The notes under the pieces were generated by a model. The model was not told the origin of the DNA and ran no database searches. It worked only from the letters and a program-made list of their open reading frames with translations. A stretch of DNA of 64,000 nt from sequence record MK373792.1; one strand, written 5' to 3'. This DNA comes from Escherichia phage vB_EcoS_VAH1. Both the position numbers and the translations under genes were made by a program. This document shows, in pieces, positions 730 through 62,996 of this stretch; within the stretch, counting starts at the first letter, position 1, and each line of letters starts with the position of its first letter.

Positions 730-2202
730 ATGACCTTGTTTAACGTGCAAGCTGTAGTGTTGAAGATGCTTCTAGCTTCCGAACAGAAGCAAATAGCATT
801 GGAAACATTCTCAAAACTGCATAAAGATCATTTTAATGACGCTTTCTCCTCAATTTACCAAGCCGTCCAGAATTATTATAAAAAATATAACACAATGCCG
901 TCCATTGACGCACTTATGCTTGAAGCTAATAGGAACGCCCGCCTTTCTCAAGCTCTAGTCGTCTTAGCTAACACTCAAATTCCAGAAGTGAGCATGGAAC
1001 AGGCACTTGAAGTCCTAGAGGCCGAATATACACAGGATTTATTCCTGAAGCTTCTAGAAACAGACGTGCTTCAAGATTTAACAATGCTGGATCAGGGAGA
1101 AATTCTCAACCGAGTTGCCTCCCTTCACTTAAAATTAGAAGAGAAAGTAACGAATACTGGAAAAGTATTCAACGCAGATAACATGCGTATTTTCCAGAGA
1201 GAAGAAGATACCAAACTGAACTTAATCGCTCTTGGTATTTGTAATGAGTTCGACGCTCAAATCGGTTTAGCTCGCACAGAAACGTTACTGCTTGGTGGTT
1301 GGCGTGGTACTGGTAAATCCATTATCTGTTCAAACATACAGGTTCAGCAATATTTGAATGGGGATATTGCTCCATACTTCTCAATTGAGATGAAAGAACA
1401 TGAAGTATTTAGACGTAATCTAGCCATGTTAGCTGGTGTATCAGCATTAGCAATGCGTAATAATACTCTAGAAGGTGCAGCTCTGTTGAGATTAGCCAGA
1501 ACTAGAGCTAGAATGTTTAATGGTGGTGAAGAGCTTTTCGACAACTTCGTTAAACAGTATACAATGGCTAAGATGAGTGATTTCTACGATATGGAGAGTA
1601 AGCTAATAGAGGGATATGAACTACATACTCCTATGATTATCGTTTATGACCCTGAACTGTCCATTACAACAGTTGACGTAGAATTAAATAAATTAGTTGC
1701 TAGATATGGTGATAAAGTTACAGTAGCTCTACTTGACTATATTAACCAAACCCGACTTCCAGACTCTAAAACCATTGATATGTATGACTGGAAAGAACAG
1801 ATGGTTGTTAGCTCGTCTTTCAAATCTATCTGCCAGAAACATAACGTGGCTGGTGTAGCTCCTTACCAGATCGATCAAGATGGTAGAACACGTATGTCAA
1901 AGGGTATTCTTGATTCCGCAGATATGGCTGCTAATCTTAATGCTGCAAAAGCTGATAATGGTCAAGGTGCTATTATGTTTGACTTCGTTAAGACTCGTTC
2001 TTCTGATAGCGTGAAGTTTATGCCTAAAATGAACTGGGAAACCTTGCGGATGGATAACACTACCAACCTAGCAATGGAAGATATATCTCAAATGGAAGCT
2101 GAGTTCATTATCCCTATTGAGAAGGATAAGCCGGCTCAACCTAAACGTGCTAAGAAAGACAAAACTGAAAATTCAACAGGTGAACAGGCCAGCGATATAT
2201 GA
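730..2202 (+). CDS. DnaB-like replicative DNA helicase
   Basis: Walker A-like GGWRGTGKS and DnaB-like N-terminal domain. The ORF-track start at 679 lies inside the terminator hairpin; ATG at 730 follows the RBS AAGGAGA. Confidence 0.7.
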   Translation: MTLFNVQAVVLKMLLASEQKQIALETFSKLHKDHFNDAFSSIYQAVQNYYKKYNTMPSIDALMLEANRNARLSQALVVLANTQIPEVSMEQALEVLEAEYTQDLFLKLLETDVLQDLTMLDQGEILNRVASLHLKLEEKVTNTGKVFNADNMRIFQREEDTKLNLIALGICNEFDAQIGLARTETLLLGGWRGTGKSIICSNIQVQQYLNGDIAPYFSIEMKEHEVFRRNLAMLAGVSALAMRNNTLEGAALLRLARTRARMFNGGEELFDNFVKQYTMAKMSDFYDMESKLIEGYELHTPMIIVYDPELSITTVDVELNKLVARYGDKVTVALLDYINQTRLPDSKTIDMYDWKEQMVVSSSFKSICQKHNVAGVAPYQIDQDGRTRMSKGILDSADMAANLNAAKADNGQGAIMFDFVKTRSSDSVKFMPKMNWETLRMDNTTNLAMEDISQMEAEFIIPIEKDKPAQPKRAKKDKTENSTGEQASDI

Positions 2203-2732
2203 TAACACAGGAAAGGCTAAAAGAGTTATTTGATTACTCCCCAGGAACTGGGGAGTTTACTAGAAAAGTATCTAGAGGTAATCAGAAAGCTGGTAGTATA
2301 GCTGGTTCTTTAAGAAAAGATGATTATATATGTATATGGGTAGATGGAAAGCCTTACTATGCGCATCAACTAGCTTTTCTCTATATGGAAGGTTATTTAC
2401 CTGAAGAAGTAGACCATATAAACCGTATACGAAGTGATAATCGTTGGGTTAACCTTAAAGATTCTTCTCACCAAGAGAATAGCAGGAATAAAGCAGCTAA
2501 AAGTAAATCAGGGTATATAGGAGTTAGTTGGAATAAACAAAGGCAAAAATGGCAAGTTCAACTAAGAGATACCAATAAAAAGAAAATATTCGGTGGATAT
2601 TTTGAGTACCAGAATTTAGAATCAGCCGTAGATAAGATTAATAAGCTACGATTACAATTTCATGGGGAAAATGCTATTCAAGAAATATTCGACCCGTCTA
2701 ATTATCCTGCATTAGAGGAGATAAATTCATGA
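2199..2732 (+). CDS. HNH homing endonuclease (MITQERLKEL family, AP2-like C-terminal domain)
   Basis: YAHQLAFLYMEGY...VDHINRIRSDNRWVNL HNH motif. Paralog of 9787..10263 and 42044..42541. ATGA start/stop overlap with the upstream gene. Confidence 0.8.
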   Translation: MITQERLKELFDYSPGTGEFTRKVSRGNQKAGSIAGSLRKDDYICIWVDGKPYYAHQLAFLYMEGYLPEEVDHINRIRSDNRWVNLKDSSHQENSRNKAAKSKSGYIGVSWNKQRQKWQVQLRDTNKKKIFGGYFEYQNLESAVDKINKLRLQFHGENAIQEIFDPSNYPALEEINS

Positions 2733-3619
2733 GTAGAATAACAGAATTACTTGATCTTAAGGGAATTGAGTATAAAGATACTGGTGGAGATATTTTAATC
2801 TGTTGCTTAAATCCAGATCATGATGATAAACACCCAAGTTTGCGTATTGATCCTGAAACCGGGATTATGCACTGCTTGAGTTGCGGGTTTGGCAAAGGTA
2901 TACCTAGTATTTATCATTATTTTAATGAGACTCAATATAGACAATCTCCAAGACTATCCCAAGTACGTAAAAAGATTTCAGAGATTAGAAATGGATCTAC
3001 GAATCTTGCAATCCCAGAATCTGCCTGCCTTTTCGAAGGTGATTTCCGAGGTATCAGTTCTAAGACCTTGAAGAAATATTTTGCTTTCCAACATCAAGAG
3101 AACTGGGAAGGCAGAATTGTATTCCCAATCACAGATGCTGTTGGACGCAATATCCTATTTTTGGGTCGTTCTATAAACAGTTCTGCCCCTCCTAAATACT
3201 TAGTAAAACCAAAACAAGTTTCACCACCGATTTTCCCTGTACGATATAATACTCCAGTTCTTGTTCTAGTTGAAGGTATCTTTGATATGCTGAACCTAGA
3301 GGATAATGGTATAGACTATGCTTCTTGCTGCTTTGGTACACATCAGTTTACCTCGGATAACATTGCAGATAAGTTCAGTCCGTATATTATTGCTGGTGTT
3401 AAAGTTGTTGTTATCTTACTAGATAATGATGCTTCTGGTAATAAAGCCGCACAAGCACTGGCTAAGCTAATTCGTACAAAAACGCGTTTAACACCTGTAG
3501 TTGCTAACTTTCTTCTGCCTGAAGGTAAAGACCCAGGTGACTTAAATAAAGAAGAAATTGATATGTTAGCAAAACGTATTGAAATTTTAGTTGCTGAATC
3601 GCTTAAAGATTTGGTATAA
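2729..3619 (+). CDS. DNA primase (zinc ribbon plus Toprim)
   Basis: CCLNPDHDDKHPSLRID...CLSCGFGKG zinc-binding motif; Toprim-like VLVEGIFDM and ILLDNDASGNKAA. Confidence 0.8.
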   Translation: MSRITELLDLKGIEYKDTGGDILICCLNPDHDDKHPSLRIDPETGIMHCLSCGFGKGIPSIYHYFNETQYRQSPRLSQVRKKISEIRNGSTNLAIPESACLFEGDFRGISSKTLKKYFAFQHQENWEGRIVFPITDAVGRNILFLGRSINSSAPPKYLVKPKQVSPPIFPVRYNTPVLVLVEGIFDMLNLEDNGIDYASCCFGTHQFTSDNIADKFSPYIIAGVKVVVILLDNDASGNKAAQALAKLIRTKTRLTPVVANFLLPEGKDPGDLNKEEIDMLAKRIEILVAESLKDLV

Positions 3620-3645
3620 TAGTCCTAAATAACTGAGGAGCTACT

Positions 3646-3975
3646 ATGGAATATGTATATATTTATGCGGATGTTCCAGTGTATGATAGTATAACACACA
3701 AAGAGGTTAAACTAGAGCGGTTTACAACACTGGAGTCCCTTAATAAACGAAAGAATTTCCATTTATTTGGTGATCCTAAATTACCTGCATCTTATATTTA
3801 CTTTAAAGTAAAAGATACAGGTCAAGAGGTATACCTAACATATGATTGGGCTGTTGTAGAAAATACTGAGCAATCTATGAAAGCGCTAGATGCTTTTCTG
3901 CGTATAGATGAAGAATTTCGGGTACTAGAAAAGCAGCGCAATGAAATGCGTAAATTACTACATACCTATAAATAG
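3646..3975 (+). CDS. hypothetical protein
   Basis: ORF with RBS GAGGAG upstream, embedded in a plus-strand operon. Confidence 0.5.
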   Translation: MEYVYIYADVPVYDSITHKEVKLERFTTLESLNKRKNFHLFGDPKLPASYIYFKVKDTGQEVYLTYDWAVVENTEQSMKALDAFLRIDEEFRVLEKQRNEMRKLLHTYK

Positions 3976-3978
3976 TAT

Positions 3979-4007
3979 TTGCTATTATCCCAATATTTTG
4001 ATATAAT
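3979..4007 (+). promoter_or_regulatory. sigma70-type early promoter upstream of the DNA polymerase gene
   Basis: TTGCTA (3979-3984), 17-bp spacer, TATAAT (4002-4007), in an AT-rich context. Confidence 0.5.
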
Positions 4008-4068
4008 ATATTGGTAAGTTAGAGAAGAAACACTGAAGTTATACTTACTTACCAAGAGGAGATTAAAT

Positions 4069-6636: not shown

Positions 6637-7126
6637 TTTCAAATTGCCCGTATATGCTTTACGGGCATTTGTATCAATTGAGCAAGAAGGTGATTATTCC
6701 GTAATTACAACAAGATATAATAAATATGTGCTAGATAACAGGAAGTTGCCTGGTACTTTTTCTCAACGTAGGCTTATTCTATTTGAGAAACGGAAAGAAT
6801 TACCATACAAGCTCTATCCTATTAGAGGTAGAATATCAATGTTGTCTCAATTAGTTGGGTCAAAGCGTAGCCAATTTATAGATTCTGATGGAAATCTTAT
6901 TAACTGGAAGAAAACTACGTTCTATGATGTTGTCACCTCTAAAGTTTTGCATTCAGCTAGAATTTATAACGGAAAATACCAATGCTATGTAGCTAAAGTT
7001 CCATATCCATTTGTATTATCCTATGTTCCAGCTTATATAAGCTATATTCTGGTAAATAATAGCCCTGTTATTTATCAAGTCCATCAAGAGGAGCCTGAAA
7101 TTCCTAGACTTAGAATAAAATTATGA
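6629..7126 (+). CDS. hypothetical protein
   Basis: ORF overlapping the polymerase stop; no recognisable motifs. Confidence 0.4.
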   Translation: MLNFKLPVYALRAFVSIEQEGDYSVITTRYNKYVLDNRKLPGTFSQRRLILFEKRKELPYKLYPIRGRISMLSQLVGSKRSQFIDSDGNLINWKKTTFYDVVTSKVLHSARIYNGKYQCYVAKVPYPFVLSYVPAYISYILVNNSPVIYQVHQEEPEIPRLRIKL

Positions 7127-7275
7127 AGGTTGTTATATCTAATAAAGCCTATTTCAAGCCCGATGATGAACTTTGGGATTATTGTAGTAAGCAAACCACT
7201 TATCACATAGAGACAATGACTAGTAAATACCCTATTATGTATAAGAATAGTGGTGTTGTTGCCCAAAGAGATTAA
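7123..7275 (+). CDS. N-terminal fragment of SF2 DNA helicase (frame 1 of 3)
   Basis: ATG at 7123; 50 codons ending just inside the start of the next helicase ORF in another frame. Confidence 0.4.
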   Translation: MKVVISNKAYFKPDDELWDYCSKQTTYHIETMTSKYPIMYKNSGVVAQRD

Positions 7276-7702
7276 GTGGATTCCTATTACGCGTCTGGAC
7301 TTATTAGATGCTAAAGGAATAAAATACGAATTAGTCGATAAACGCACATTAGCTCCAGTAGATATACCAAAACCTGAGTTCAAGCTGCGTGAAGAAGACC
7401 AGCTCCCAATATATAAAGAGTGTGATGATACCTGTATTATTAATGGTAAGCCTGGATTTGGTAAAACTATCCTAGCCCTTGCACTTGCGTATAAATTTGG
7501 CCAGAAAACTTTGGTAATCTGTACAAATACATCCATACGTGAAATGTGGGCGGCAGAAGTTCGTAAATGGTTTGGGTTTGAACCAGGCATCATAGGTTCT
7601 GGGAAGTACAATATTGATCCACCAATTGTAGTCAGCAATATTCAAACAGTAAATAAACATGCGAATAATCTTTCTAAAGTATTCGGTACTGTTTATAGTT
7701 GA
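7250..7702 (+). CDS. SF2 ATP-dependent DNA helicase, Walker A segment (frameshifted gene)
   Basis: Walker A GKPGFGKT. Ends ...KVFGTVYS* immediately before the helicase motif II in the next frame. Confidence 0.7.
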   Translation: MVLLPKEIKWIPITRLDLLDAKGIKYELVDKRTLAPVDIPKPEFKLREEDQLPIYKECDDTCIINGKPGFGKTILALALAYKFGQKTLVICTNTSIREMWAAEVRKWFGFEPGIIGSGKYNIDPPIVVSNIQTVNKHANNLSKVFGTVYS

Positions 7703-8477
7703 TGAAGTTCACCATTGTGTGGCTACAACTTTCACTAATTTCCTAGAAATATCATGTGCTCGCTATAAAATTGGACTATCCGGTACACTAAAACGAAAAG
7801 ATGGTTTACAAGTTATGTTCAAAGATTTCTTTGGATATAAGATATTTAGCCCGCCGGTTAATAATACTGTTGCACCTACAATCCATAGGTACTCCGTGCC
7901 TGTTGAGCTATCAGGAAACCAAAACGTGCCGTGGGCATTACGTGCTAACGATGTGTATAATCATCCTGAATATCGAGAGACTATTATAAACCTAGCACAT
8001 TTATATGTGAATATGGGGCATAAAGTACTCATTGTAAGTGATAGAACAGAGTTAATCCAAACAGTACTAGAAGCTCTTACGCAGCGGGGTGTTACAACAT
8101 ATGAAATTATAGGGGCAACCCACTTAGATGACCGATTAAAAATTCAGGAAGATATAGCAAAAGGTGGGCCTTGTGTACTTGCAGCAGCTCAAAGTATCTT
8201 CTCTGAAGGTATTTCTCTTAATGAGCTATCTTGTTTAATAATGGGAAGCCTCATTAATAATGAATCTCTCATTGAACAGCTTGCAGGCCGTGTTCAACGT
8301 ATTGTCGATGGTAAACTCGACCCTATTGTTGTAGATCTAATTATGAAAGGTGGCACTGGACTAAGACAGGCTTCTGGACGTATGGCAGTATATCGTAACA
8401 ACGGGTGGAAAACTATTACTATGACCCCGGAGAAAGCAGTTCAATTAGCTAAAATTGCATTTGGCAACAGCTCATAA
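7659..8477 (+). CDS. SF2 ATP-dependent DNA helicase, DExH and C-terminal domain (frameshifted gene)
   Basis: LFIVDEVHH (motif II), LSGTLKRKDG, and C-terminal helicase domain with QLAGRVQR. Confidence 0.7.
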   Translation: MRIIFLKYSVLFIVDEVHHCVATTFTNFLEISCARYKIGLSGTLKRKDGLQVMFKDFFGYKIFSPPVNNTVAPTIHRYSVPVELSGNQNVPWALRANDVYNHPEYRETIINLAHLYVNMGHKVLIVSDRTELIQTVLEALTQRGVTTYEIIGATHLDDRLKIQEDIAKGGPCVLAAAQSIFSEGISLNELSCLIMGSLINNESLIEQLAGRVQRIVDGKLDPIVVDLIMKGGTGLRQASGRMAVYRNNGWKTITMTPEKAVQLAKIAFGNSS

Positions 8478-9750: not shown

Positions 9751-9755
9751 TAAAT

Positions 9756-9786: not shown

Positions 9787-10263
9787 ATGATTACACAAGA
9801 GCGATTAAAAGAGCTGTTAGATTATAATCCTGAGACTGGAGTATTTACCTGGAAAGTATCTCGTGGTAGAGTTTCAAAAGGATCTGTAGCTGGAACAGCA
9901 GTATCAGTAGGGAATAGGTACACCCGCTGGGAGATTCGAGTTGAAGGAAAAAGATATAAGGCGCATCAGTTAGCATTTCTATACGTTCATGGTTATATTC
10001 CACCTGAGATTGATCATGAAGATAGGAATCCATTGAATAATGCAATACTTAACCTAATAGACTCTTCAAAGTCTCGTAATCAATTAAATAAGAATAAAAA
10101 CTTCGGTAAAGAAACACCAAAAGGAGTCTTTGTAAAAGCCTCTACTGGAAGATACTTCGTACAGATTCAAGGAAAGCACTACGGCTACTTTGATGACGTA
10201 GAACAGGCCAGAACTGTTGCTAATGAGGTATATGATAGGTTGTTAAATGAGAATACTGTTTAG
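9787..10263 (+). CDS. HNH homing endonuclease (MITQERLKEL family)
   Basis: N-terminus MITQERLKELLDYNPETGVFTWKVSRG; HNH motif YKAHQLAFLYVHGYIPPEIDHEDRNPLNN. Confidence 0.8.
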   Translation: MITQERLKELLDYNPETGVFTWKVSRGRVSKGSVAGTAVSVGNRYTRWEIRVEGKRYKAHQLAFLYVHGYIPPEIDHEDRNPLNNAILNLIDSSKSRNQLNKNKNFGKETPKGVFVKASTGRYFVQIQGKHYGYFDDVEQARTVANEVYDRLLNENTV

Positions 10264-11224
10264 TGCTGATCACCATATCAAGCTAGGGCAGGATAAGGTA
10301 CCTAAAGAGTTTCAGAAGCGTCGCTTCCTGATGCTAGGAGAACGGTTAAATGATATATTCCATAATCATAACTGTGATCTTCATATTGCTGGTGGTGATA
10401 TACTTGATGTTGCCGACCCGTCGTCAGAAGAAATAGAACTGCTTGAACAGTTCATGTCAAGACTTGACCATCCAGGCAAAATCTTTACTGGAAATCATGA
10501 AATGTTAACTAAAACCATTTCATGTCTATACCATTATGCGGGAGTTATTAATAAAGTAACTAGTGGGAAGTGGGAAGTAATTACCAAACCATATCGTTCC
10601 CCTGAATTTGATATTGTTCCGTATGATGAGATTCATAAACCCAAGTGGAAACCTGCTGAATCAAAACTATGTTTCACGCATGTTCGTGGTGAAATCCCTC
10701 CACATGTAAAACCAGAAATTGATCTAACTAAGTACAACTGTTATGATACTGTAATTGCTGGCGATTTACATTCTTATACTAATAGCCAGACTATCGGGTC
10801 TACTAGACTCCTTTACCCAGGGTCTCCATTAACTACATCGTTCCATAGAGAACGCACAAAAGGTACAAATGGTTGCTTTATCATTGATACCGACACATTA
10901 AAAGTAGAATGGATTGAACTAGGTGATTTACCACAACTGATTCGTAAAACAATCGGAGCTGGGGAAGAGATGGAACCTAGTGATTATGATCGTGTAGTCT
11001 ACGAAGTTACTGGTGACGTTGTTCAATTAAAGTCTATCAAAGACTCTGATTTATTAGATAAGAAGATTAACCATCGAGTTACTAAAGATGCTAAGTTAAA
11101 TCTTGTTGATCTTGATATGTTGGGCGAACTTGAACTTTACTTCCGTGAAGTCGAGAAGCTATCTCAAGGCGACATTGATAGAATCTTGGCTAGAGCTGCG
11201 AAATATGTCAAAGATTACAATTAA
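10247..11224 (+). CDS. SbcD/Mre11-like recombination nuclease (metallophosphoesterase)
   Basis: Phosphoesterase motifs SADHH, GGDILD, GNHE, GDLH. Confidence 0.85.
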   Translation: MRILFSADHHIKLGQDKVPKEFQKRRFLMLGERLNDIFHNHNCDLHIAGGDILDVADPSSEEIELLEQFMSRLDHPGKIFTGNHEMLTKTISCLYHYAGVINKVTSGKWEVITKPYRSPEFDIVPYDEIHKPKWKPAESKLCFTHVRGEIPPHVKPEIDLTKYNCYDTVIAGDLHSYTNSQTIGSTRLLYPGSPLTTSFHRERTKGTNGCFIIDTDTLKVEWIELGDLPQLIRKTIGAGEEMEPSDYDRVVYEVTGDVVQLKSIKDSDLLDKKINHRVTKDAKLNLVDLDMLGELELYFREVEKLSQGDIDRILARAAKYVKDYN

Positions 11225-35562: not shown

Positions 35563-36776
35563 TCTTTATCTCCCTCGGTGGAACCTTGAGGTCTACCACC
35601 TTCTTGACCAGATACACCTGTTGCAGAACCAGCAACGTTAGCAGGAATACGAATCCTATCCATCTGCTCATCATCTAAAGGTTCAAGGTTCAGCTCTAAA
35701 CGAGCTTCGTTACCAGTCATAATACCATTATTAACCAATGAGGTTAAATGTTTAGCCTCAGCTTCTTTATCTGGTGTTAATGCAGCTACCTCCTTAGTAT
35801 TGGGGGTAATCTTATAACCAAAAAAGAAAGTAAGAGAACTAGTCAGTTTGTTCAGCATAGGAATGATAGTCATATAATAGAACAATTCGATGTTTGGTCG
35901 AATATTCGCATTATTACCACCATCAAGTAGTACTTGCGGAACTCCAAAGGCTAGACAAATAGATTTATTAAATCCTTCGATGTCTTCCTTAAAGTCTAGA
36001 TCTTTAAAAGAGGATATTTGGGAGTACGGTTTAGCTTTCATACCACCATCTAGAATCAGGACAGAAGACTGACCCGTACTAGGATTATAATCGAGTTGTA
36101 ATTCTTCTTGTTTACGCTCACGCAATTTCTTGTTCAGGATTTCATCCGTCTCAAGAATAAGACCAATCACGGTTCCGTTATCTAGGAATTTCTCTTTAAA
36201 GTTAAGCATCTTAGAACGCTTCTCAAGAGAATCAATAACAGTAGCAACACGAGATTGTCCAGAAATTTGAGAATTTGTGCCACACACGTAACTGTTATCC
36301 TTTATAAAGATAATCTCATCTACGCGATAGTCTATCTGATTATTAAATATAAATTTTTTGATAAACTTATTGGCATCTGCCTCGACCTGCATAAGAGCGG
36401 CCGGGACATGGTAAAGCGATGTGCCATCCCAATAGATGTATGCACAACCTTCAAAAAGTAGGTCAGTGACTACAAGTCTACGGAATGTGCTTATATCCAT
36501 GAATGGATTAGGTCGTACATTTAAGAGAGTGTCTAGAGTCTTTGTCTTGATGCCATTGGCATACGTGACAATATTATATTTATCTCCGACAGTATAAGAA
36601 CACTCCGCCGCACTATCTATAACCATATTGGCAGTTCGATTGAGAATCTCAATCTTGCTATAGGCTTGTCCAGTGGTAAAAGGCTTACGGTTAGTGCGAT
36701 GACTAACTGGTTCCATGTCTCTTATAATACGTTGACCCGGATTTAACTTTTCAGTAATCCAGCTTTTTAAACCCAT
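35559..36776 (-). CDS. portal protein
   Basis: 405 aa, directly downstream of the terminase and HNH genes. Confidence 0.8.
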   Translation of the reverse strand: MGLKSWITEKLNPGQRIIRDMEPVSHRTNRKPFTTGQAYSKIEILNRTANMVIDSAAECSYTVGDKYNIVTYANGIKTKTLDTLLNVRPNPFMDISTFRRLVVTDLLFEGCAYIYWDGTSLYHVPAALMQVEADANKFIKKFIFNNQIDYRVDEIIFIKDNSYVCGTNSQISGQSRVATVIDSLEKRSKMLNFKEKFLDNGTVIGLILETDEILNKKLRERKQEELQLDYNPSTGQSSVLILDGGMKAKPYSQISSFKDLDFKEDIEGFNKSICLAFGVPQVLLDGGNNANIRPNIELFYYMTIIPMLNKLTSSLTFFFGYKITPNTKEVAALTPDKEAEAKHLTSLVNNGIMTGNEARLELNLEPLDDEQMDRIRIPANVAGSATGVSGQEGGRPQGSTEGDKE

Positions 36777-37213
36777 TATAAGAACCTTGCGAATCCTGAT
36801 TTTATTTCAGTCTTGACTTGTGTCTTTTCTTGAGGATTCTGTAATTTGTCTTTCTGCTTTTGAACCCACACTTTTTGCTTATTAGCAGAAAATAAAGGAG
36901 GTTCTTTTGTGTAAACCTTATGTAATAGTTGGTGATGGTGTACACAAAGGGTAACAGTGTCTTCTACTAGCTCATGCCTATATCGATCATAGAATGCCGT
37001 CCTATTTGAAAGGACTGTTTCTTCGTCAGTGAAATCCAATTGGAGTTCTTTAGCAAATTTTTTAACTAGTAGAGACACCGTATGGTAATGATGAAGCTCT
37101 AATTCTTCAGCACAACCGCAGATAGCACATTGAGAGTCTTTTTTATATTGACTTTTTATTCCGTCTCTCATAAGGGATATAGCATCGCGTTTATATTTTA
37201 TATTGCTTGCCAT
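36776..37213 (-). CDS. HNH endonuclease (terminase-associated)
   Basis: CAICGC...ELHHYH...LCVHHHQLLH zinc-finger/HNH motif. Start set at ATG 37211-37213 after RBS GAGGAG. Confidence 0.7.
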   Translation of the reverse strand: MASNIKYKRDAISLMRDGIKSQYKKDSQCAICGCAEELELHHYHTVSLLVKKFAKELQLDFTDEETVLSNRTAFYDRYRHELVEDTVTLCVHHHQLLHKVYTKEPPLFSANKQKVWVQKQKDKLQNPQEKTQVKTEIKSGFARFL

Positions 37214-37327
37214 AGTGTTCTCCTCAACTGTATGAATATAGTATACATAATCGTATCGAATTTGTAAAGGGGATTTTAAAATACAGGAATGGGATACCAA
37301 CTGAGTAGTATCCCATCCTATACTTAT

Positions 37328-37840
37328 TTATTTACCGCGGGAAATAGAGTAAATTCCATAGCGCAGCGCATCACAAAGGTGAGAGTTAGCATCATGACGT
37401 GGTTTTTCACGTGATAATTTCTCTTCACCTTCTTGGAAATCCCACTTATAGTTCTGCAATGCATGGATTAGTGAGGAACATGAAGCATCTACAATAATCT
37501 TGCCCTGCTGGAATAGCGCTTGCAAGCATGCTAGACCATCTAGGACAGATTTTTTAGCTGGAGCTGATGCAATTTCGTGCTCGTAAGCTAAGTCCTGGCG
37601 GAACTGAGCGGCGGCAGAGTCAACAAAAATACGATCAACTTTATAACGATCTATACAGTGCTGAATATAAGCAGCATGCTGAGCTGTAGTTTTTTCAGCC
37701 TGCTGGTATTCTTCTAACACGTAGTAGGTATCCGTATCGTAATGATATTTAATAGTAAGAACTGCTGTAGGATCACGATAACCAACGTCAATACCAAGCA
37801 ACGTTTCGAATGCTTCATCATCTTTAAAGAAGTGACGCAT
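37328..37840 (-). CDS. terminase large subunit, C-terminal nuclease domain (frame open up to about 37941)
   Basis: Terminase nuclease region. The frame continues upstream as NYFRQEYEADFSVFEGQIFDTFNAIDHV... to a stop adjacent to the frameshift site. Confidence 0.8.
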   Translation of the reverse strand: MRHFFKDDEAFETLLGIDVGYRDPTAVLTIKYHYDTDTYYVLEEYQQAEKTTAQHAAYIQHCIDRYKVDRIFVDSAAAQFRQDLAYEHEIASAPAKKSVLDGLACLQALFQQGKIIVDASCSSLIHALQNYKWDFQEGEEKLSREKPRHDANSHLCDALRYGIYSISRGK

Positions 37841-38643
37841 ACCTTTGAGATCTTTAACATGATCAATAGCATTAAAGGTATCAAAGATCTGGCCTTCGAA
37901 TACAGAGAAGTCAGCCTCGTATTCTTGGCGGAAGTAGTTTTACTAACTGTACGACGTGCTTCCTCAATGTCATTCAGGTCAGCACGTGGGTTATCACGAT
38001 ATGTACCATGAATAGATACCCAGTTAGGCAACGTATCATCAAATCCGTAGGCGTAAAATTCTTTAAACCAGTTACCCCCACGAGGGGTGGAAATAAATAG
38101 AGCTTTAGAATTAGGTTTATCTAGAGTAGGACGCAGCTGAACCCTGAAGGCATCACCACCCACATCGGAAATTGCCGCCTCGTCAAAGATGATAAAATCA
38201 TATGAACGTCCAACTGCGGAGTCAGCCTGAGCCGCGGAAGCTAGTTTAAATAGAGAACCATTAGCTAACTCAATCTCTTTATCTTTAGCGTTTTCACGTT
38301 CGGTTTGTAGGCCATACTTCTTAATAAGACCACGAATCTGAGACCATCCGATATTGGCCAGTGAGTAGTTAGGGGCAACTACTAGCACCTTCACATTAGG
38401 TTCCAGCAATTTTAGGAACCCAAGTGTATACGCTATAAAAGATTTACCTACACGGCGTGATACACACGCCGTTACAAAACGATGTCTAGGGTCTTCTAGC
38501 GCATTGATAATTGCTATTTGAGGGCCGTTAGGTGTAATACCCTCTTGTGCTAGTATTCCGGAAACGGGTAAACGAAAGAAACGCTTATCTATTCCGAAAT
38601 CAATAACATCTACTGTATTAACATAAGGTCTTGATACTTCCAT
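37714..38643 (-). CDS. terminase large subunit, N-terminal ATPase domain (frameshifted gene)
   Basis: Walker A-like SRRVGKS and Walker B YDFIIFDEAA. After ...DIEEARRTVSK the frame turns into low-complexity garbage. Confidence 0.85.
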   Translation of the reverse strand: MEVSRPYVNTVDVIDFGIDKRFFRLPVSGILAQEGITPNGPQIAIINALEDPRHRFVTACVSRRVGKSFIAYTLGFLKLLEPNVKVLVVAPNYSLANIGWSQIRGLIKKYGLQTERENAKDKEIELANGSLFKLASAAQADSAVGRSYDFIIFDEAAISDVGGDAFRVQLRPTLDKPNSKALFISTPRGGNWFKEFYAYGFDDTLPNWVSIHGTYRDNPRADLNDIEEARRTVSKTTSAKNTRLTSLYSKARSLIPLMLLIMLKISKVCVTSLKMMKHSKRCLVLTLVIVILQQFLLLNIITIRIPTTC

Positions 38644-39125
38644 TACTTCTTACCTCCAGTAGCTAGGGAAGTGATTAAGTCCATGTAATTTTGATCCCCA
38701 GCTCCAGCAATAATGTTATTCTGGATATTGGTCTGATTAGCAGGAGCTCGGACGGCAGCTTTAGCTTTTTCTAGCTCTACCATCATCTTCATTTCTTCCA
38801 TCTTCATTTTGTGTGCTTTCCAGAGAATATCCATAATATCTTGGTCAGAACCCATGCCGGTTTCTTCCAGTTCCTCTAGTTTACGCTTGATAACTTCATC
38901 CAGAACACCAAATAAACGATCCCTATTACGGAAACCACTCTCCATAAAAATATCATTTAAGTAGTTCTTAACTTCACTACGATTCATAATATCTCGGAAA
39001 GCAATTTCGGACATTCCAAGACTACGTGCGGCAGAAGGCACATCGCTGCCACACTGTAAATAAGCTTCAATTACATCCATCCCTTCAGGGGACATAAGAT
39101 CTGGTACTAATACATCATTTGCCAT
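38643..39125 (-). CDS. putative terminase small subunit (HTH protein)
   Basis: 160-aa ORF immediately upstream of the terminase large subunit; HTH-like [19 protein letters not shown]. Confidence 0.5.
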
Positions 39126-41846: not shown

Positions 41847-42057
41847 TATTATAATTGCTTTTATTATCGGGGTACTTGCGGGAATTTTCGGAATGACTGC
41901 GGCTATTAACAAGCATCGTAAGTATACTGCGGAAGTATCGCGGGAGATTGCGGAAAGGGAGCGGAAGTTTGACGAGAAACGTGCGGAGTTTGAGCGGGAG
42001 TGGAATGATGGTTCAAGAAGTTCTCGGAGGAGATTCAAGATAGATGGCAAATCATAA
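41839..42057 (+). CDS. small membrane protein (72 aa)
   Basis: N-terminal TM helix and a charged C-terminal tail. Confidence 0.5.
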   Translation: MFSIIIAFIIGVLAGIFGMTAAINKHRKYTAEVSREIAERERKFDEKRAEFEREWNDGSRSSRRRFKIDGKS

Positions 42058-42541
42058 ACCTCTACTTCCCTTAGCAGAATACCAGAAGAAATTTGATTAT
42101 GACCCTGAAACCGGTATGTTTACTTGGAATTCAGGGAGTCGTAAAGGTAAACCAGCAGGTAGTAGAAATAGTTCAGGAATATCCCTATCAATGGGTAGTA
42201 ATGGGCTATATAAGGCCCATCGGGTAGCGTATCTATACATGACAGGAGAAGACCCGGGTGAATTTCTCATTGATCACAAAGATCAAGACCCCTTCAACAA
42301 TAGGTGGAATAACTTACGTAAAGCAACAAATGCAGAGAATGGAAAAAACTCTTCGGGATGGAAGAATGAGTCTACAGGGGTTAAGGGAGTATATAAACGC
42401 GAGGAGGGAAAGTTCGAAGCAAAACTACGTGTAAATGGTAATAGAATTACCATAGGAACTTTTAAAACTCTTGAGCAGGCTGAAAAAGAACTTAGAAAAG
42501 CCAGGGAGCATTACCACGGTGAGTTTGCAAACCATAATTAA
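42044..42541 (+). CDS. HNH homing endonuclease
   Basis: PETGMFTWNSGSRKGKPAGS...YKAHRVAYLYMTGEDPGEFLIDHKDQDPFNNRWNNL; same family as 2199..2732 and 9787..10263. Confidence 0.8.
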   Translation: MANHKPLLPLAEYQKKFDYDPETGMFTWNSGSRKGKPAGSRNSSGISLSMGSNGLYKAHRVAYLYMTGEDPGEFLIDHKDQDPFNNRWNNLRKATNAENGKNSSGWKNESTGVKGVYKREEGKFEAKLRVNGNRITIGTFKTLEQAEKELRKAREHYHGEFANHN

Positions 42542-47715: not shown

Positions 47716-48234
47716 TTAATTGACAATTCCAAATTCAGCTTTTTTAGTTTCTACCCATAATAATAACTCTTGTAAATCATAACCTGATTTACTAACACTT
47801 TTGTTACTAGTAGGATCTTTAACTATAGCGCGCAAATAGTTTCTTCCGTTATTATCAACTCTAGAACCATTATAATAGATATGCTTAGGCAACTTATTAG
47901 CACGCTTATAATCTTTCTTGTTATTCATATTCTGCTTATGATCTACTAAGCGAAGATTATTAATGTTATTATTAGCACGGTTACGATCATTATGATCGAT
48001 TGTTAGATTGCTATCAATCTCACCATTAAATAATACCCATATTATTCTATGCACTGCGTATTGTTCGCCTGCTAACTTTACTCGATAGTAACCTGTGTTA
48101 CTATAATGCCCTGCAATATCACCCACCTTACTATTACCTTTCTGTACTTTCCACCTTAGAAATGATGGGGATGTTTCATCATAATAAAAGTTATCATTAG
48201 CAAGCGAATAATCTATATCTTTAAATAGACCCAT
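47716..48234 (-). CDS. HNH homing endonuclease
   Basis: YAVHRIIWVLFNGEIDSNLTIDHNDRNRANNNINNLRL HNH motif; AP2-like C-terminal domain. Confidence 0.75.
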   Translation of the reverse strand: MGLFKDIDYSLANDNFYYDETSPSFLRWKVQKGNSKVGDIAGHYSNTGYYRVKLAGEQYAVHRIIWVLFNGEIDSNLTIDHNDRNRANNNINNLRLVDHKQNMNNKKDYKRANKLPKHIYYNGSRVDNNGRNYLRAIVKDPTSNKSVSKSGYDLQELLLWVETKKAEFGIVN

Positions 48235-51814: not shown

Positions 51815-51980
51815 CATTCTTAAATGAGAATCATTATCATTCGTATTCCACTTTTTAAATGAGAATCATTTCACTTTTTAAATGAGAATCATTTCACTTT
51901 TTAAATGAGAATCATTCCCTTTCTTAAATGCGAATCATTATCATTCGCATTTCACTTTTTAAATGAGATTGATTCTCATT
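51815..51980. repeat. tandem array of about six ~21-bp repeats (consensus TCACTTTTTAAATGAGAATCATT)
   Basis: Direct reading: repeated TTAAATGAGAATCATT cores with sub-repeats CATTATCATTCGCATT. Confidence 0.75.
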
Positions 51981-53176: not shown

Positions 53177-53560
53177 TTATTCCTCCTCTTCGAGATTGGT
53201 ATTGGGATCGTAAATTTTCTTGGCTCCTGTATTTAATAGGAATCGCTCTGCAAGTTGTGGGTGAATATCAAAGAACTCTGTGCATCCTTCGAATCCCTTT
53301 AAATTACAGCGGTATTTCTTAAAGTAGATATGAGCAGCGGCTTCTAGATCTCTAGGATTATGGGTTTCATAAATCCCATACACGTATAAATCGTCAAAAC
53401 CTCGATAGACTATCTTATCTAAGTTTAGTGTTTGAATCCTATTATGTGGATTCATACTGATACCGATCTTTGTTCTTTTAGGGATCTTCGTCAGATCCCT
53501 ATTTGCAAGAATATATACTTTATATAGTGACATTCTTTCTAGCCTTGAGTTTGATACCAA
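53177..53560 (-). CDS. T5orf172 (GIY-YIG-like) domain protein
   Basis: KVYILANRD...KIGIS...RIQTLNLD...YVYGIYETHNP...GCTEFFDIH matches the T5orf172 domain pattern; TTG/ATG start ambiguous. Confidence 0.6.
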   Translation of the reverse strand: MVSNSRLERMSLYKVYILANRDLTKIPKRTKIGISMNPHNRIQTLNLDKIVYRGFDDLYVYGIYETHNPRDLEAAAHIYFKKYRCNLKGFEGCTEFFDIHPQLAERFLLNTGAKKIYDPNTNLEEEE

Positions 53561-54236: not shown

Positions 54237-54238
54237 TG

Positions 54239-56431: not shown

Positions 56432-56432
56432 A

Positions 56433-56636: not shown

Positions 56637-56692
56637 TTGAAGTTCCTTAAAAACATAAAAGGCCAGAACAACTAAGTCCTGGCCTCCTAAAA

Positions 56693-57670: not shown

Positions 57671-57769
57671 TGTTTTTAAGTCTCCTTATTACTTTGGCCT
57701 GCTCCACAATAATGAAAACTGCGAGCACTAATAGTGCTATTAGCCCCGCAGTAATTGGTACTAAATCAA

Positions 57770-58096
57770 TCATGGGAGACGCCATACATAATTAGCTGTC
57801 TGTAGAACCTTAGGTGTGTCATCATGGTACATTACTACAGACTTTGGTGAATAACTATCAGCTAGTTCTTTACGAATCATCTTACATTCTTCACCAGTAT
57901 CGATATTTTTAACTATCACTTTCATATTAAGAGGTGTTAATACAGAAAGCGGTTTCCAGGAGTCCTCAATCTCAATTCCTACCTTTTTCTCGATTACCGT
58001 GAGAACTTCTAGTGTATCATCTGGAATACTAATATTATTATTCACAAACTGTAATATCTCATGTAAGGTATTTAATTCATTAAAATTAAGCTTCAT
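57770..58096 (-). CDS. hypothetical protein
   Basis: 108-aa ORF. Confidence 0.5.
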   Translation of the reverse strand: MKLNFNELNTLHEILQFVNNNISIPDDTLEVLTVIEKKVGIEIEDSWKPLSVLTPLNMKVIVKNIDTGEECKMIRKELADSYSPKSVVMYHDDTPKVLQTANYVWRLP

Positions 58097-58301
58097 CTTT
58101 AAGAATATCCTCTACCATATCACAGGACTGTTGCAATTCGTCAGCAATACGTTTAATATCGGTTTTTGTTACTTTACCAACTAACATCACCAGTAACATA
58201 GAAAAGATAATAAGTGGAACTGGAATAACAAATAAAGCTACCTTAACAACATTCTTTGGCGTCCATGTGTGGTACTTGGTAACCAGTACACCAAACCACA
58301 A
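58086..58301 (-). CDS. small membrane protein
   Basis: 71 aa with a TM segment. Confidence 0.4.
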   Translation of the reverse strand: MWFGVLVTKYHTWTPKNVVKVALFVIPVPLIIFSMLLVMLVGKVTKTDIKRIADELQQSCDMVEDILKDEA

Positions 58302-58336
58302 TCAAATAAAACGCTAGAATAAACATCATCATTTTT

Positions 58337-58612
58337 TTAATCTCCGTAATTATCTGAGCACGCATCATCACTTTTTGGTAATTTTGTATTCCCAGCTATT
58401 GCTTCAATATTGTTTAGTTTTTCTTTTAGAATATCTGAGCGTCTCTGTGCTAGTTCAATATCTTGTTCTTGTTCTATTAAGCGGCAGTGAAGTCCATCAT
58501 TAGTAATAAGCATACTTTCCATGTTTTTTCGTGCGTTTACAATCCCAATAACTCCACCAATCGCTACTAGTGTAGTAAGAACTAGTAACCCAATAAGAAT
58601 TTCTGTAATCAT
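58337..58612 (-). CDS. small membrane protein
   Basis: 91 aa; N-terminal TM helix. Confidence 0.45.
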   Translation of the reverse strand: MITEILIGLLVLTTLVAIGGVIGIVNARKNMESMLITNDGLHCRLIEQEQDIELAQRRSDILKEKLNNIEAIAGNTKLPKSDDACSDNYGD

Positions 58613-59148
58613 TTATTTAATTCCTCTAAAGTAGGTAAGGGTTTTGTATGATCAAAAGTTTCTATAACAGCGTTAGGCCCATGTAGTTCTAAACGTAGTT
58701 CATTAGCTCTTTGAACTGCCAACTCTAAATCTAGATACCTAAAGTAGCCTCCGTGTACTGTAATGCTTTCGGCGCTTCTGGCCTGGACTCTCCATTGTTG
58801 TCGATCTTTTTTCCAGGTAACTCCTAAGTATCCCCGAATTAGATTGAGCGATTCTGCTACGATTATTCTCTTGGGACGTACAATCTTTTAAATTACACCA
58901 TTATTATCTTTTCTTATATTATTTAAGTGGTGTACTAGATTTGGAATATACCCCTCCATGTACAAAAAAGCTAACCTATGGGCTGCATATCTTTTTCTAT
59001 TTATTCCAATAAATATATATAACCATCCTTATCAGGACTACCAGCAATACTACCTGCTTTACCTCGCCCTCTACTGACTTTCCTTATAAATTCGCCCGTT
59101 TCCGGGCGGTATTCAAATAGCTCTTTTAATCTTTCTTGTGTTATCATT
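58613..59148 (-). pseudogene. degenerate HNH homing endonuclease (MITQERLKEL family) with multiple frameshifts/stops
   Basis: Minus-strand translation from ATG 59146-59148 gives MITQERLKELFEYRPETGEFIRKVSRGRGKAGSIAGS... then a stop; HNH-like pieces (AHRLAFLYMEGYIPNLVHH, KDRQQWRVQ..., ...LELHGPNAV) continue in other frames. Confidence 0.6.
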
Positions 59149-59374
59149 TTTTCTTTAATTGCTTAACTTCACGCTCAAAGCTAGCCGCTCGTCGTTCTGC
59201 CACTGCTTGATGCTCCTTAGCAAAGCGTGCCTCTTGTTTTGCTAAGTTAAAGGCCATAGCGTTCTTGTTAAGAGAATCGTACATCTTCTTCATCGCCGGA
59301 ATAGACATTTTCATCAGTTGCCCCTCAAATCCTTGCATATCGAGGAGAATTGCCAGAACGTTAGCCATTTTCAT
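59144..59374 (-). CDS. hypothetical protein
   Basis: 76-aa ORF. Confidence 0.45.
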   Translation of the reverse strand: MKMANVLAILLDMQGFEGQLMKMSIPAMKKMYDSLNKNAMAFNLAKQEARFAKEHQAVAERRAASFEREVKQLKKK

Positions 59375-59471
59375 TTTTAGTCATGTTTTCCATTAGAATT
59401 TCCTCTCTCATTAATTTATGAACTTATTATACAGAATTTTAAGGCTTAAAGCAACTGAATTTTTTAATTAC

Positions 59472-59903
59472 TTACCAATCGTTAACAACACCAGAGAACT
59501 CAGAAGCAAAAACTTTTTCAAATTTTTCTGCAATTTCAGGATGATCTTTGCAGATCAGCTCAATGCATGCTTCTGGAGTCATTCCTTCATCTTCAGGATC
59601 ACCATAGTATTTATCCCAAAGATCATCGGGAATGATATGCTCTGCCAAATCTTGGAAAGAGATTAACTGATAACGTTCTGCCTCCTCAGCGATAAGAATT
59701 TCGCACAGATCTTTATCTATATCGCTACGATAATCCGCAATTAATAAGGCATTGCAAGCATGACATTCCCAGACCATCAAACGTTCAGAGATAGGATTAG
59801 ACTTATCCTGAACGTAAGACTGGAACAAGGTTCGGAAAGTTGCCTTAACTTGTTCAAACTTATCTGCTGCTGCGAAAACTAGAGCTTTATCAACTTTGTT
59901 CAT
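59472..59903 (-). CDS. hypothetical acidic protein
   Basis: 143-aa ORF. Confidence 0.5.
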   Translation of the reverse strand: MNKVDKALVFAAADKFEQVKATFRTLFQSYVQDKSNPISERLMVWECHACNALLIADYRSDIDKDLCEILIAEEAERYQLISFQDLAEHIIPDDLWDKYYGDPEDEGMTPEACIELICKDHPEIAEKFEKVFASEFSGVVNDW

Positions 59904-60070
59904 TTTGATTCCTTCTCATCAATTTATAAAGTAATTATACAGAAACTTAAGCATTTTAGCAAATAAAACTTTCAATTAAAATGCCTAATCCTGTGCCAAT
60001 AGCAATACAAATGATTATAAGTATTGCTATCGCTTGTATGCTTCGTTTAATAATAGCCTCAGCTATATAC

Positions 60071-60665
60071 TTAGACATTTATATCGCCACGTAATACAGC
60101 AGCTACATCTTCCCCTATTTGTAATACTTCGCCAGTAGTACAATTAACTACTCTATCATAGCTAGTAAACTTACCAGACACAATATCCTCTAGTGGAATT
60201 GGAGTTTTACTCATTTCAAATGAGACATTAATATAACGTGGATCACGTAAAGAAGTAGTATGTACATGTCCGTGAATATTTAGTTTTTGCCACGAAGTTC
60301 ATTAGGGTGCAAAGGGCAGTGAGATAGCCAAAACTTTTTGCCACCTCCAGTCTGTTTGCCTAGAGCTTGAATATCGTCATAAACTTCCGCTAAGTCCCTA
60401 ATACTCAGTCCTTGACGCTCCGCATCATGATTACCCATAATGAGTTGATTAGGGACATTGGATAAACCGACTTTAATTTGGCCAGACCTTCACGACCTAC
60501 TGCAATATCTCCTAGCAAAATAAGTTTTGTTCGTTTACCAATATGCTTGGATAAAGTATCTAGAATATACTCATCGTGCTCTTTCATGTTCTTAAACCAC
60601 GGACGGAAACGTAGTGCTCCGGGGTGGTCTAAGTGCAAGTCTGACCAGAATTTAACCTTCATCAC
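60071..60665 (-). CDS. calcineurin-like metallophosphoesterase, interrupted by two apparent frameshifts
   Basis: Frame 1 (60405..60665) has SDLHLDH...LLGDIAVGREG; frame 2 has MGNHDAERQGL; frame 3 has IHGHVHTTS... running to the stop at 60071-60073. Confidence 0.65.
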
Positions 60666-60682
60666 TTACTCCTTTTTTTGTA

Positions 60683-60952
60683 TTAAATTATATCAACCCA
60701 GGTAGTTAATACTCTAGTTTTAAACTCCTCGGGAGTCTCTCCTTCCTTAAGGTCTACCTCATTAAGGTAGGTAGTAAGCCTTGTTTCTATCTCTATTTCA
60801 GCAGGAGAATTAAAACAAAAATTGACTGCTATTCCAGAATATATTACTCCGGTATCTCCTTTGACGAAAGCATTAACTAATGCTCTCCAACGAAGGGCAT
60901 CAATACGCATTGCTCGTAATTCTTCTTGTACTTCTTTCATTCTATCATTCAT
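60683..60952 (-). CDS. hypothetical protein
   Basis: 89-aa ORF. Confidence 0.45.
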   Translation of the reverse strand: MNDRMKEVQEELRAMRIDALRWRALVNAFVKGDTGVIYSGIAVNFCFNSPAEIEIETRLTTYLNEVDLKEGETPEEFKTRVLTTWVDII

Positions 60953-61022
60953 TAAAGAATCCTCTGTACACCACAGCTATCTTCGAAGCGTGGTAAATGT
61001 TGTGATTTTCCCAGTTTCATCA

Positions 61023-61826
61023 TTAACTTGCGCAACCGTCAACTGCCCGTTGAAAAACACCGCCAGTATCAAGATAAACACGGTTCTGGTATAAAATCGG
61101 GTAAGGTACTCCAGTATGCCCGTGAAACACGAAATCTACCCCTTTAACTTCTGGCACTTCTACCATGTATTTCTCTTTAAACCCTGCATAACGCTGGAAA
61201 TATGAGTGTTCTTCACCATTTTTAGATAAGTGAAAACCTATTTCTTGGATTACATCTCGATCCCATAAGTATGGTTCAACATGGTATCCAGGATGGTCAT
61301 GTGTGGGTCTTCCTTAGATGCTTCTACTTGTGCAATAAGGTTATCCCATACTGGGGTTTCTACTTCGTTACCACATTCTTTGTACGTAAAAGGTACACCA
61401 CCATGAACAACACCATACTTTTTACCACGATGCAATACAGTCAGAAATACTGGCATTTTTTCAGCCATGTCTTCAGCAATATTTTTAATGGTATCTGCAT
61501 CTAGTTCATTCATAGCCCACATACCACCATTATACATCCAGTTAGCCCAATCTCCCACAATCATAAATTGGTCATGATTACCTCGGACACTGATAAAGCG
61601 TGGATTATACAGGAATTTGGAAAACTTGTAGGTTCTGCGTGCCTCGATCAATTAAATCTCCCACGCATACAACACAATCTTTCTTGCCGTTATAGCCAGC
61701 TAATTGTAGTGCATCTTCTAGTAAATCGTTACATCCATGAATATCACCAACGAAAAACAAGTTGGCGTCATCCGGCACTACTAGAGTTTTATGTACATTA
61801 AATTCTTTTTTCATAATTATTCCCAA
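61023..61826 (-). CDS. Ser/Thr protein phosphatase (PPP family, lambda-PPase-like), interrupted by two apparent frameshifts
   Basis: GDIHGC and GDLIDRG in 61605..61826; GNHD and VVHGG in 61250..61651; FVFHGHT in a third frame ending at about 61023. Confidence 0.7.
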
Positions 61827-62155
61827 ATAACAGTTAAAATAGTTGTGCCATAATCATTAGATAGCTGGAGAGTATAACCCTCTTTATAGAGGGCTTTTAT
61901 AGCTTCATAACTAATTTCATCACGATTAAACTGTACAAAACCCCCAATCTCCACAGAAGAAACTATTCTCTTTTAACATACTTATATGGTTTCTTTCTGC
62001 TCTTGAGAAGAGCAGCTCTATTAACTCTAGCTAAATGTTTTGCTTGCTCTGCTAACATTTAATCCTCCTATCAATCTATATAAATAGTATACCAAAATTT
62101 TTAGCAAAAAGCAAGTAAAATAAAAGCCTGATCCGCTAAGATCAGGCTTGGTTTA

Positions 62156-62455
62156 TTAATCCTCTGGATTATCGTCTAGGAAATTTTTAATAGCTTCGTG
62201 CATAGTTTCTTTACGAAGCTGACGTCCAACCAAAATATGATTAGCTTCTACTCGACCATTAGGTAAGCGATCCGCTAGAACTACTACAGGAACAGCTCTT
62301 ACTCCGAACTTCTGCATTAATTCTGTATTATCAGTCTCTTTGTGGACTTCCAAATTATAGTCATTGACTACTTTATCAAATACTACTGGCTCGAAAAGAG
62401 CACAAGGACGACACGTGGAACCTTTTAATAAATAAATAACTTTGCTCATATACAC
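62156..62455 (-). CDS. glutaredoxin/thioredoxin-fold protein (NrdH-like)
   Basis: CxxC motif CRPC near the N-terminus; about 95 aa. Confidence 0.6.
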   Translation of the reverse strand: MYMSKVIYLLKGSTCRPCALFEPVVFDKVVNDYNLEVHKETDNTELMQKFGVRAVPVVVLADRLPNGRVEANHILVGRQLRKETMHEAIKNFLDDNPED

Positions 62456-62560
62456 TCCTATTTTACTTGTTAAGCTCTTCTAAATCTGGTATATATCCAA
62501 GAAACTCCTCAATTAAAGCGTACTCCCCAGCAATCTCCTGTCTAGACTTATTCGCTAAGT

Positions 62561-62996
62561 CTACTGCAGAGCTAAGTCTTCATAATTGAAGATTCCTTTC
62601 ATACGTTTTCGGCCTGTTTCATCCGTAATTTGAACTCTCCATTTCTGCCTATCTTTAGCCCACATAACATTTGCATATCCGGATTTGGATTTTATGCTTT
62701 TATTACGACAATTTTGTGGTTTAGATGCAGAACGTAAATTTTTCCATCGGTTATTTTGTGGATTTCTATCTATGTGATCCACAAATTCAGGTATATATCC
62801 TTCCATATATATAGGCCCATCTATGGGCTCCCTGCCTCTCCCCTTCCCACCATTATCATTATGTAATCATTGTTGTACAGGGTTCCAGCTTCCATTCCCC
62901 TCTTTACATACTGATTATTACCATCTATCTTCCAGGTAAACACACCCGTTTCCGGGTTATAATCTAGTAATTCCTTTAATCTTTCTTGTGTTATCA
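62561..62996 (-). CDS. HNH homing endonuclease (MITQERLKEL family), apparently frameshifted
   Basis: GTG start at 62994-62996 gives VITQERLKELLDYNPETGVFTWKIDG... then a stop; the C-terminal HNH part YMEGYIPEFVDHIDRNPQNNRWKNL... is in another frame (62561..62806). Confidence 0.6.

Follow-up and report, generated by a model that had tools for sequence, protein, structure and literature searches.

The questions raised by this locus are how many of the HNH endonuclease genes dispersed through it belong together, whether they are mobile, and whether some of them have begun to decay. The locus is a 64,000-nucleotide (nt) stretch of DNA (the window) from Escherichia phage vB_EcoS_VAH1 (sequence record MK373792.1), in which a preliminary description had listed at least seven HNH homing endonuclease genes, two of them decayed. 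All seven open reading frames (ORFs) were confirmed as present in the window. We put at about 0.82 the probability that six of them are free-standing homing endonuclease genes of the HNH_3 family, that the seventh encodes a conserved SciA nickase, and that the frame breaks in two of the six are probably artefacts of the sequence. For the occupancy counts given below, each gene with flanks of about 450 base pairs (bp) was searched against 50,697 phage records, and a record was counted if at least 80% of the query aligned. Because only the window's own allele and its close variants are counted, the figures set a minimum for the occupancy of each site by any allele.

2199–2732, plus strand: HNH_3 gene, intact, at the helicase/primase junction; window allele in 71 of 440 records
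9787–10263, plus strand: HNH_3 gene, intact, at the D11/D12 junction; window allele in 8 of 442 records
42044–42541, plus strand: HNH_3 gene, intact, upstream of dmp; window allele in 32 of 257 records
47716–48234, minus strand: HNH_3 gene, intact, hegG orthologue at the hegG site; window allele in 17 of 477 records
58609–59147, minus strand: HNH_3 gene, frame-broken; window allele in 57 of 357 records
62463–62997, minus strand: HNH_3 gene, frame-broken, with a GTG start; window allele in 12 of 419 records
36776–37213, minus strand: SciA-type site-specific nicking endonuclease (His-Me/HNH zinc-finger type), a core late gene at the portal/terminase locus

The four intact copies all matched the Pfam family HNH_3 (PF13392), with scores of 39.8–57 bits against a curated cutoff of 24.8 bits and E-values between 1e-10 and 1e-15 (2.3e-13 for 2199–2732, 3.5e-10 for 9787–10263, 1.5e-13 for 42044–42541 and 1.5e-15 for 47716–48234). 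All four also matched PHROG 99 (phrog_99, “HNH endonuclease”), the first of them with E = 5e-66. Two additional, frame-broken copies were located by tblastn with the intact proteins, at approximately 59147–58615 and 62997–62573, and in a six-frame hidden Markov model (HMM) search both appeared as segments split between frames that, when joined, spanned the whole family profile. Their true extents are 58609–59147 and 62463–62997, rather than 58613–59148 and 62561–62996 as first described. Neither tblastn at E ≤ 10 nor the six-frame HMM search detected further HNH copies in the window. After correction of insertions and deletions (indels), the copies at 2199, 9787, 42044, 58609 and 62463 (denoted here by their first coordinate) shared 29–60% amino acid identity. 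Residues H56, H73, N81, N85 and N94, in the numbering of the 2199 copy, were invariant across nine family members, and the corrected broken copies keep the catalytic histidine and asparagine residues of the beta-beta-alpha-metal motif.

On these alignments, six of the seven ORFs are assigned to one HNH_3 family, with four intact and two frame-broken members, and the relatedness of the copies is borne out for all six. This includes the gene at 47716–48234, which had been set apart as another type of HNH gene: it belongs to the same family by both HNH_3 and phrog_99, and its product is 100% identical in amino acid sequence to that of T5 hegG (T5p009/T5.010, P-TflVII). An N-terminal MITQERLKEL-like signature had been attributed to five copies and is indeed present in four of them; the copy at 42044 starts with MANHKPLLPLAEYQKKFDYDPETGMFTW and shares only the downstream motif. 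In the C-terminal domain of the 2199 copy, a match to AP2 was found only below threshold (E = 0.002, 18.8 bits versus a cutoff of 33.3), while a note in the Shivani record labels the orthologue in that phage “HNH and AP2/ERF”.

The seventh ORF, at 36776–37213, had also been listed as an HNH homing gene. Its product aligned over its full length (residues 1–145) with PDB entries 9qgv/9qgx, “Nicking endonuclease”, at E = 3.7e-79, and is 82% identical to T5p149. In the DT57C record the orthologue is annotated as sciA, a “nicking site-specific endonuclease”, and the ESCO40 record likewise describes a nicking site-specific endonuclease. The ORF had no Pfam match even at E ≤ 1, and only a weak match to an HNH PHROG. 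In 434 of 442 related records, at least 80% of the portal–terminase locus that contains it could be aligned. By homology and conservation, this ORF is identified as a SciA nickase, a core gene and not a homing gene. The sciA and sciB genes have been linked genetically to the single-strand interruptions of T5 DNA (PMC3517423), the only source among our literature search results in which either gene was mentioned. A sciB orthologue, 98% identical, is present in the window at 38643–39125. It is the SciA nickase that introduces site-specific single-strand interruptions into T5-type virion DNA.

The six HNH_3 genes all sit at precise gene junctions, as the preliminary description had suggested, and exact empty junctions were found in relatives at all six sites. 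Comparison with HNH-free relatives showed each site to be polymorphic, being empty or occupied by the same or another allele. Site 1 lies between the genes for the replicative helicase and the primase, where the endonuclease gene forms a 530-bp insert bounded by ATGA overlaps. This site is empty in Bf23 and occupied in T5, where it is annotated as hegJ (P-TflX). Nine of 27 relatives from IMG/VR were occupied, eight with the T5 type and one with the window type. At site 2, the gene is inserted exactly at the start codon of D12, past the terminator hairpin of D11, and its stop codon falls 17 nt inside D12. Relative to T5 and Bf23 this is a clean 460-bp insertion; 25 of 28 IMG/VR genomes were empty, and the other three had an unrelated HNH gene of 527 bp inserted at exactly the same nucleotide. 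The gene at 42044–42541 lies at the edge of the terminal-repeat region, and this dmp-proximal site is empty in T5 and OSYSP and contains other HNH alleles in LVR16A and MET_P1_179_112. The hegG orthologue is a pre-early gene within the terminal repeat. At the 58609 site, 11 of 28 IMG/VR genomes hold a 537-nt HNH gene belonging to at least two allele groups, and the remaining genomes have a 171–174-nt filler ORF or other short sequences. The 62463 copy is a 550-bp insert between a hypothetical gene and a thioredoxin gene; HildyBeyeler is empty at this site, IrisVonRoten has another allele and Shivani an intact orthologue. Overall, the window's allele was carried by ≈2–16% of phage records per site. 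The sporadic occupancy, the clean empty sites and the tracts of silent changes described below therefore fit with the six genes behaving as free-standing homing endonuclease genes.

Clusters of substitutions were found immediately downstream of the first two genes:

2729–2827, plus strand: 5′-terminal 99 nt of the primase gene, predicted to be the homing target or immunity tract of the site-1 endonuclease
10247–10312, plus strand: first 66 nt of D12, substitution cluster at site 2, predicted target/immunity or co-conversion tract

Within nt 1–99 of the primase gene, the 10 endonuclease-carrying genomes, including the window, had 8–20 differences from the consensus of the endonuclease-free genomes, compared to 0–3 differences in the 17 endonuclease-free genomes themselves (Mann–Whitney p = 6e-6, for genomes that are not phylogenetically independent). 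In the window itself, the tract contains 16 differences, which leave the translation identical to that of the consensus. On the left (helicase) side of site 1, no association with endonuclease presence was seen in the same genomes. The D12 gene of the window has 13 differences from the endonuclease-free consensus in its first 66 nt versus 11 in the next 534 nt, and endonuclease-free genomes have 0–5 differences in the same 66 nt. The upstream flank at the 58609 site has 95–98% identity in carriers and, for the most part, 81–86% in non-carriers. The primase and D12 tracts are what would be expected of enzymes that target the start of the downstream gene in genomes lacking the endonuclease, with carriers immune by virtue of silent changes. 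A diverged tract that was co-converted together with the gene could give rise to the same pattern in the flanks.

A mechanism of spread can be proposed along these lines. Each HNH_3 gene, placed at a gene junction with ATGA-type start/stop overlaps at two sites, would be expressed together with its host operon. During mixed infection, the enzyme would introduce a nick or a break near the insertion point in the allele of a related phage that lacks the endonuclease, and the phage recombination machinery would repair the break from the carrier genome, copying the gene along with nearby markers. Clusters of silent substitutions in the target would protect the carrier genomes. The site-1 enzyme is predicted to act within the initial ≈100 nt of the primase gene, and the site-2 enzyme within the initial ≈66 nt of D12. 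Cleavage activity, target positions and the actual mobility of the window's HNH_3 genes are predicted from the sequence.

The two broken copies were considered separately. Relative to intact orthologues, the 58609 copy contains three small indels (+TA, −G and +A), and the 62463 copy also contains three (+G, −2 nt and −G), plus one in-frame 3-nt gap. The frame breaks that led to the description of these copies as decayed are thus real in this sequence; the decay itself is doubtful, given only three small indels in each, no nonsense substitutions and a low ratio of nonsynonymous to synonymous polymorphism (pN/pS). The corrected ORFs are both 178 amino acids long and free of stop codons, and their products are 97% identical to the S130 protein (58609) and the Shivani protein (62463). 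When the broken copies were compared with their orthologues, pN/pS was 0.07–0.26; the value was 0.05–0.08 for pairs of intact genes and 0.07 for the intact copy at site 1. All 11 occupied 58609-site alleles in IMG/VR are exactly 537 nt long, versus 539 nt in the window, and all are full length in one frame, as are the three orthologues compared at the 62463 site, two of which are from IMG/VR.

The disruption is not restricted to the endonuclease genes, and both copies fall within a larger disturbed region:

58293–63213, 4.9 kilobases (kb): indel-dense patch that includes both broken HNH copies and about eight other broken genes

This patch contains 20 window-specific indels of a length not divisible by three (4.1 per kb), compared to three found in the other 59 kb. 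Six of the 20 fall within the HNH genes, so that these are not enriched for indels (p = 0.26). Proteins of phage APCEc03 mapped in a single frame everywhere between 41.4 and 58.1 kb, and nearly every gene from 58.3 to 63.3 kb was split or truncated by the same comparison. Among the genes broken in the patch are those for a phosphoesterase, divided over three frames, and a Ser/Thr phosphatase, over three or more, and pN/pS in the broken neighbours was 0.07–0.18. The patch ends ≈200–300 nt beyond the two broken endonuclease genes. Frameshifts were also found in genes elsewhere. The D10 helicase gene (7123–8477) is spread over three frames by homopolymer insertions at 7262 and 7692 (CC to CCC and TT to TTT), its pieces having 97–99% protein identity to T5 D10. 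The large terminase gene (terL, 37331–38643) has a one-base deletion at 37937 in a run of T residues (TTTTT to TTTT), and its two halves are each 99.5% identical to the T5 terminase. Taken over both genes, amino acid identity on either side of the frameshifts was 97–99.6%. A viable phage needs both D10 and terL, and the sequence therefore contains errors. Decay specific to the HNH genes is rejected on the pN/pS ratios of the copies and their neighbours, together with the lack of indel enrichment and the frameshifts in the neighbours, D10 and terL. We infer that the indels of the patch are errors as well, the patch being most simply a low-quality or misassembled stretch, and that the broken copies are probably intact in the real phage. 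Automatic annotation would miscall about a dozen pseudogenes from the frameshift errors in D10, terL and the 4.9-kb early patch.

Several points weigh against the combined reading of mobile genes and sequence artefacts. At the 62463 site, the haplotype of the upstream flank was not linked to endonuclease presence, and a few endonuclease-free genomes (L036, for example) carry part of the D12 variant tract. The association between flanks and endonucleases could stem in part from shared ancestry of the carriers, and not from target immunity. Several of the indels in the patch are 2 nt long or lie outside homopolymers, and do not have the error profile typical of any one sequencing platform; real slippage mutations are a possible cause, as is a mixed population. 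Finally, hegG may serve the phage by damaging host DNA rather than by homing.

This last point leads to the alternative that survives best, which we nevertheless consider unlikely: that some of the HNH_3 genes are retained for a function in the phage, such as host DNA damage by hegG or exclusion of competitors, and are no longer selfish. The hegG gene, to which 47716–48234 is identical in product, is pre-early, and a preprint reports that hegG expressed alone is toxic and compacts and damages host DNA. All copies are under purifying selection, which active homing genes would show too. Each gene is absent from most relatives, and such genes are not needed for the T5 lifestyle: phage Stitch reportedly lacks HNH homing endonucleases (PMC4319617). 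We continue to favour homing as the explanation for the six genes.

Less likely again is that the two broken copies are genuine pseudogenes, homing genes that became fixed and then decayed once selection was lost, as in the classic homing cycle. Homing endonuclease genes are generally expected to decay in this way once they have become fixed. Each copy does differ from every intact orthologue by three frame-breaking indels, and some of these are not homopolymer changes, several being dinucleotides; because of the dinucleotide indels in the patch, we leave a small share of the probability to this possibility. The corrected ORFs are full length without nonsense substitutions, however, with pN/pS ratios equal to those of intact pairs and an indel density no higher than in the surrounding patch. 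Moreover, frameshifts also affect conserved phosphatase genes in the patch and, elsewhere in the window, the essential genes D10 and terL, and the window alleles at the two sites are far from fixed in the records listed above. An artefact of the sequence remains our preferred explanation for the broken frames. It is improbable that the patch is real and represents the scar of error-prone break-induced repair, or of repeated gene conversion, between two homing sites; if it were, a block of dispensable early genes would have been inactivated at once. The position of the patch ends, just beyond the two endonuclease genes, would agree with such a scar.

The preliminary description had further proposed that the last two copies arose by recent duplication or homing within this genome, on account of a shared 5′ region of ≈50 bp. 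The similarity exists: in the 58609 and 62463 copies, the first 30 coding nt agree at 26 positions and the first 75 at 54. It is not specific to this pair, since the six pairs formed by the four MITQERLKEL copies all share 52–57 of these 75 nt, while the 40 nt upstream of the copies are identical only at chance level (8–13 of 40). With 48% amino acid identity between the two copies overall, and orthologues 96–98% identical in amino acid sequence at each copy's own locus in other phages, the alignments rule out a recent duplication, and we give it next to no weight. On the same comparison, the shared 5′ stretch is identified as sequence coding for the conserved N terminus of the family.

This conserved segment may have another role. 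At site 1 (2199–2300), the window and T5 are identical over both flanks and the first ≈100 nt of the endonuclease gene, and the gene bodies are 57–72% identical in nucleotide sequence. At the 62463 site (62928–62997), the sequence resembles IrisVonRoten up to approximately nt 70 of the gene and Shivani from there on, forming a mosaic. At these two sites, the breakpoints between diverged endonuclease alleles are located inside the conserved N-terminal coding segment. The segment, ≈100 nt long, may therefore act as a recombination handle through which endonuclease bodies are swapped as cassettes.

Many genomes of the genus Tequintavirus (T5-like, Demerecviridae) have 93–96% nucleotide identity to the window, which identifies it as DNA of a T5-like phage. 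The genes are arranged as follows:

1–14.8 kb: replication genes, including D5, helicase, primase, polymerase, D10–D15 and dut
15–40.7 kb, minus strand: tail, head and packaging genes
41–64 kb: pre-early genes of the terminal repeat (dmp, A1, A2), then early genes

Between 40.7 and 48 kb, the late genes pass straight into the terminal-repeat genes (dmp, A1, A2 and hegG), followed by early genes. It therefore seems that the long terminal repeat is represented in the source record by one copy, collapsed or permuted. After the pre-early genes, a 23-bp unit is repeated 4.1 times in tandem in non-coding sequence at 51845–51939; APCEc03 has one unit fewer.

Two observations concern other endonuclease-like ORFs. 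In T5, a 277-residue ORF with T5orf172 and zinc-finger domains (T5p150; compare L012, 4732–5565) lies between sciA and the terminase gene. This ORF is absent from the window, where the corresponding interval is 37214–37330, and the short arrangement is found in most relatives (434 of 442). Its first 28 codons (84 nt) are 100% identical in the window; we considered these as a remnant of the gene, and read them instead as promoter-region DNA over-included by the T5 annotation. At 53177–53560 on the minus strand, an ORF of 127 amino acids contains T5orf172 and MUG113 domains (Pfam E = 5e-12 and 4e-8) and matches phrog_18411, “homing endonuclease”, over the first 102 of 236 profile positions only. 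This ORF, absent from the original list of genes, is a candidate for an extra mobile endonuclease of a non-HNH type.

The mosaicism of T5-like phages has a textbook source in their multiple HNH homing endonuclease genes, and the presence of such genes here does not change that picture. According to the BF23 genome paper (PMC10644984), no other genes contribute as much to the differences between T5-like genomes. The gain from the present analysis is modest. Its mildly new output is the pair of target predictions, namely primase nt 1–99 for enzymes of the hegJ site and D12 nt 1–66 for the enzyme of the D11/D12 site, and its sole oddity is an indel patch that ends just outside the endonuclease genes.

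Among known systems, the Seg/Mob homing endonucleases of T4-like phages (for example, SegB; PMC2330249) are intergenic and sporadic, as are the genes in the window, and show preferential inheritance together with flanking markers, which is the mode expected for the window genes. The Seg proteins belong to the GIY-YIG family and come from another phage family, and homing has been proven experimentally for Seg. The closest solved relative of the HNH_3 family, as judged by profile comparison, is I-HmuI of Bacillus phage SPO1 (PDB 1U3E), which the family profile matched with E = 6e-8; a PDB search with the 2199 protein as a single sequence gave no match. The HNH core of I-HmuI aligns to the profile and shares the DH…N…N catalytic pattern, the similarity being limited to ≈75 residues. 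I-HmuI is intron-encoded, whereas the genes in the window are free-standing.

The nearest comparison is with T5, in which the phenomenon is already known and annotated. T5 is reported to have nine HNH homing endonuclease genes and Stitch none (PMC4319617), and nine or ten heg genes are annotated in T5; F-TflI, F-TflII and F-TflIV are given as characterised H-N-H endonucleases of this phage by Akulenko et al. 2004, as cited in PMC10644984. The RefSeq genome of T5 has hegJ (P-TflX, T5.120) and hegG (P-TflVII, T5.010) at two of the six sites, both annotated as “putative” (P-Tfl). The D11/D12, dmp-proximal, 58609 and 62463 sites, which are occupied in the window, hold no endonuclease gene in T5. 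T5 SciA (T5p149; PDB 9qgv/9qgx) occupies the same portal/terminase position as 36776–37213 and has the same CxxC…HH…HHH pattern; the two do not differ materially and are orthologues, core and non-mobile, unlike the six HNH_3 genes. T5 hegJ is located at the same helicase/primase junction as 2199–2732, with identical flanks and an identical start, and its product is 65% identical in amino acid sequence to that of the window allele. T5 hegG, of the same family and genus, is identical to its counterpart in the window at every amino acid.

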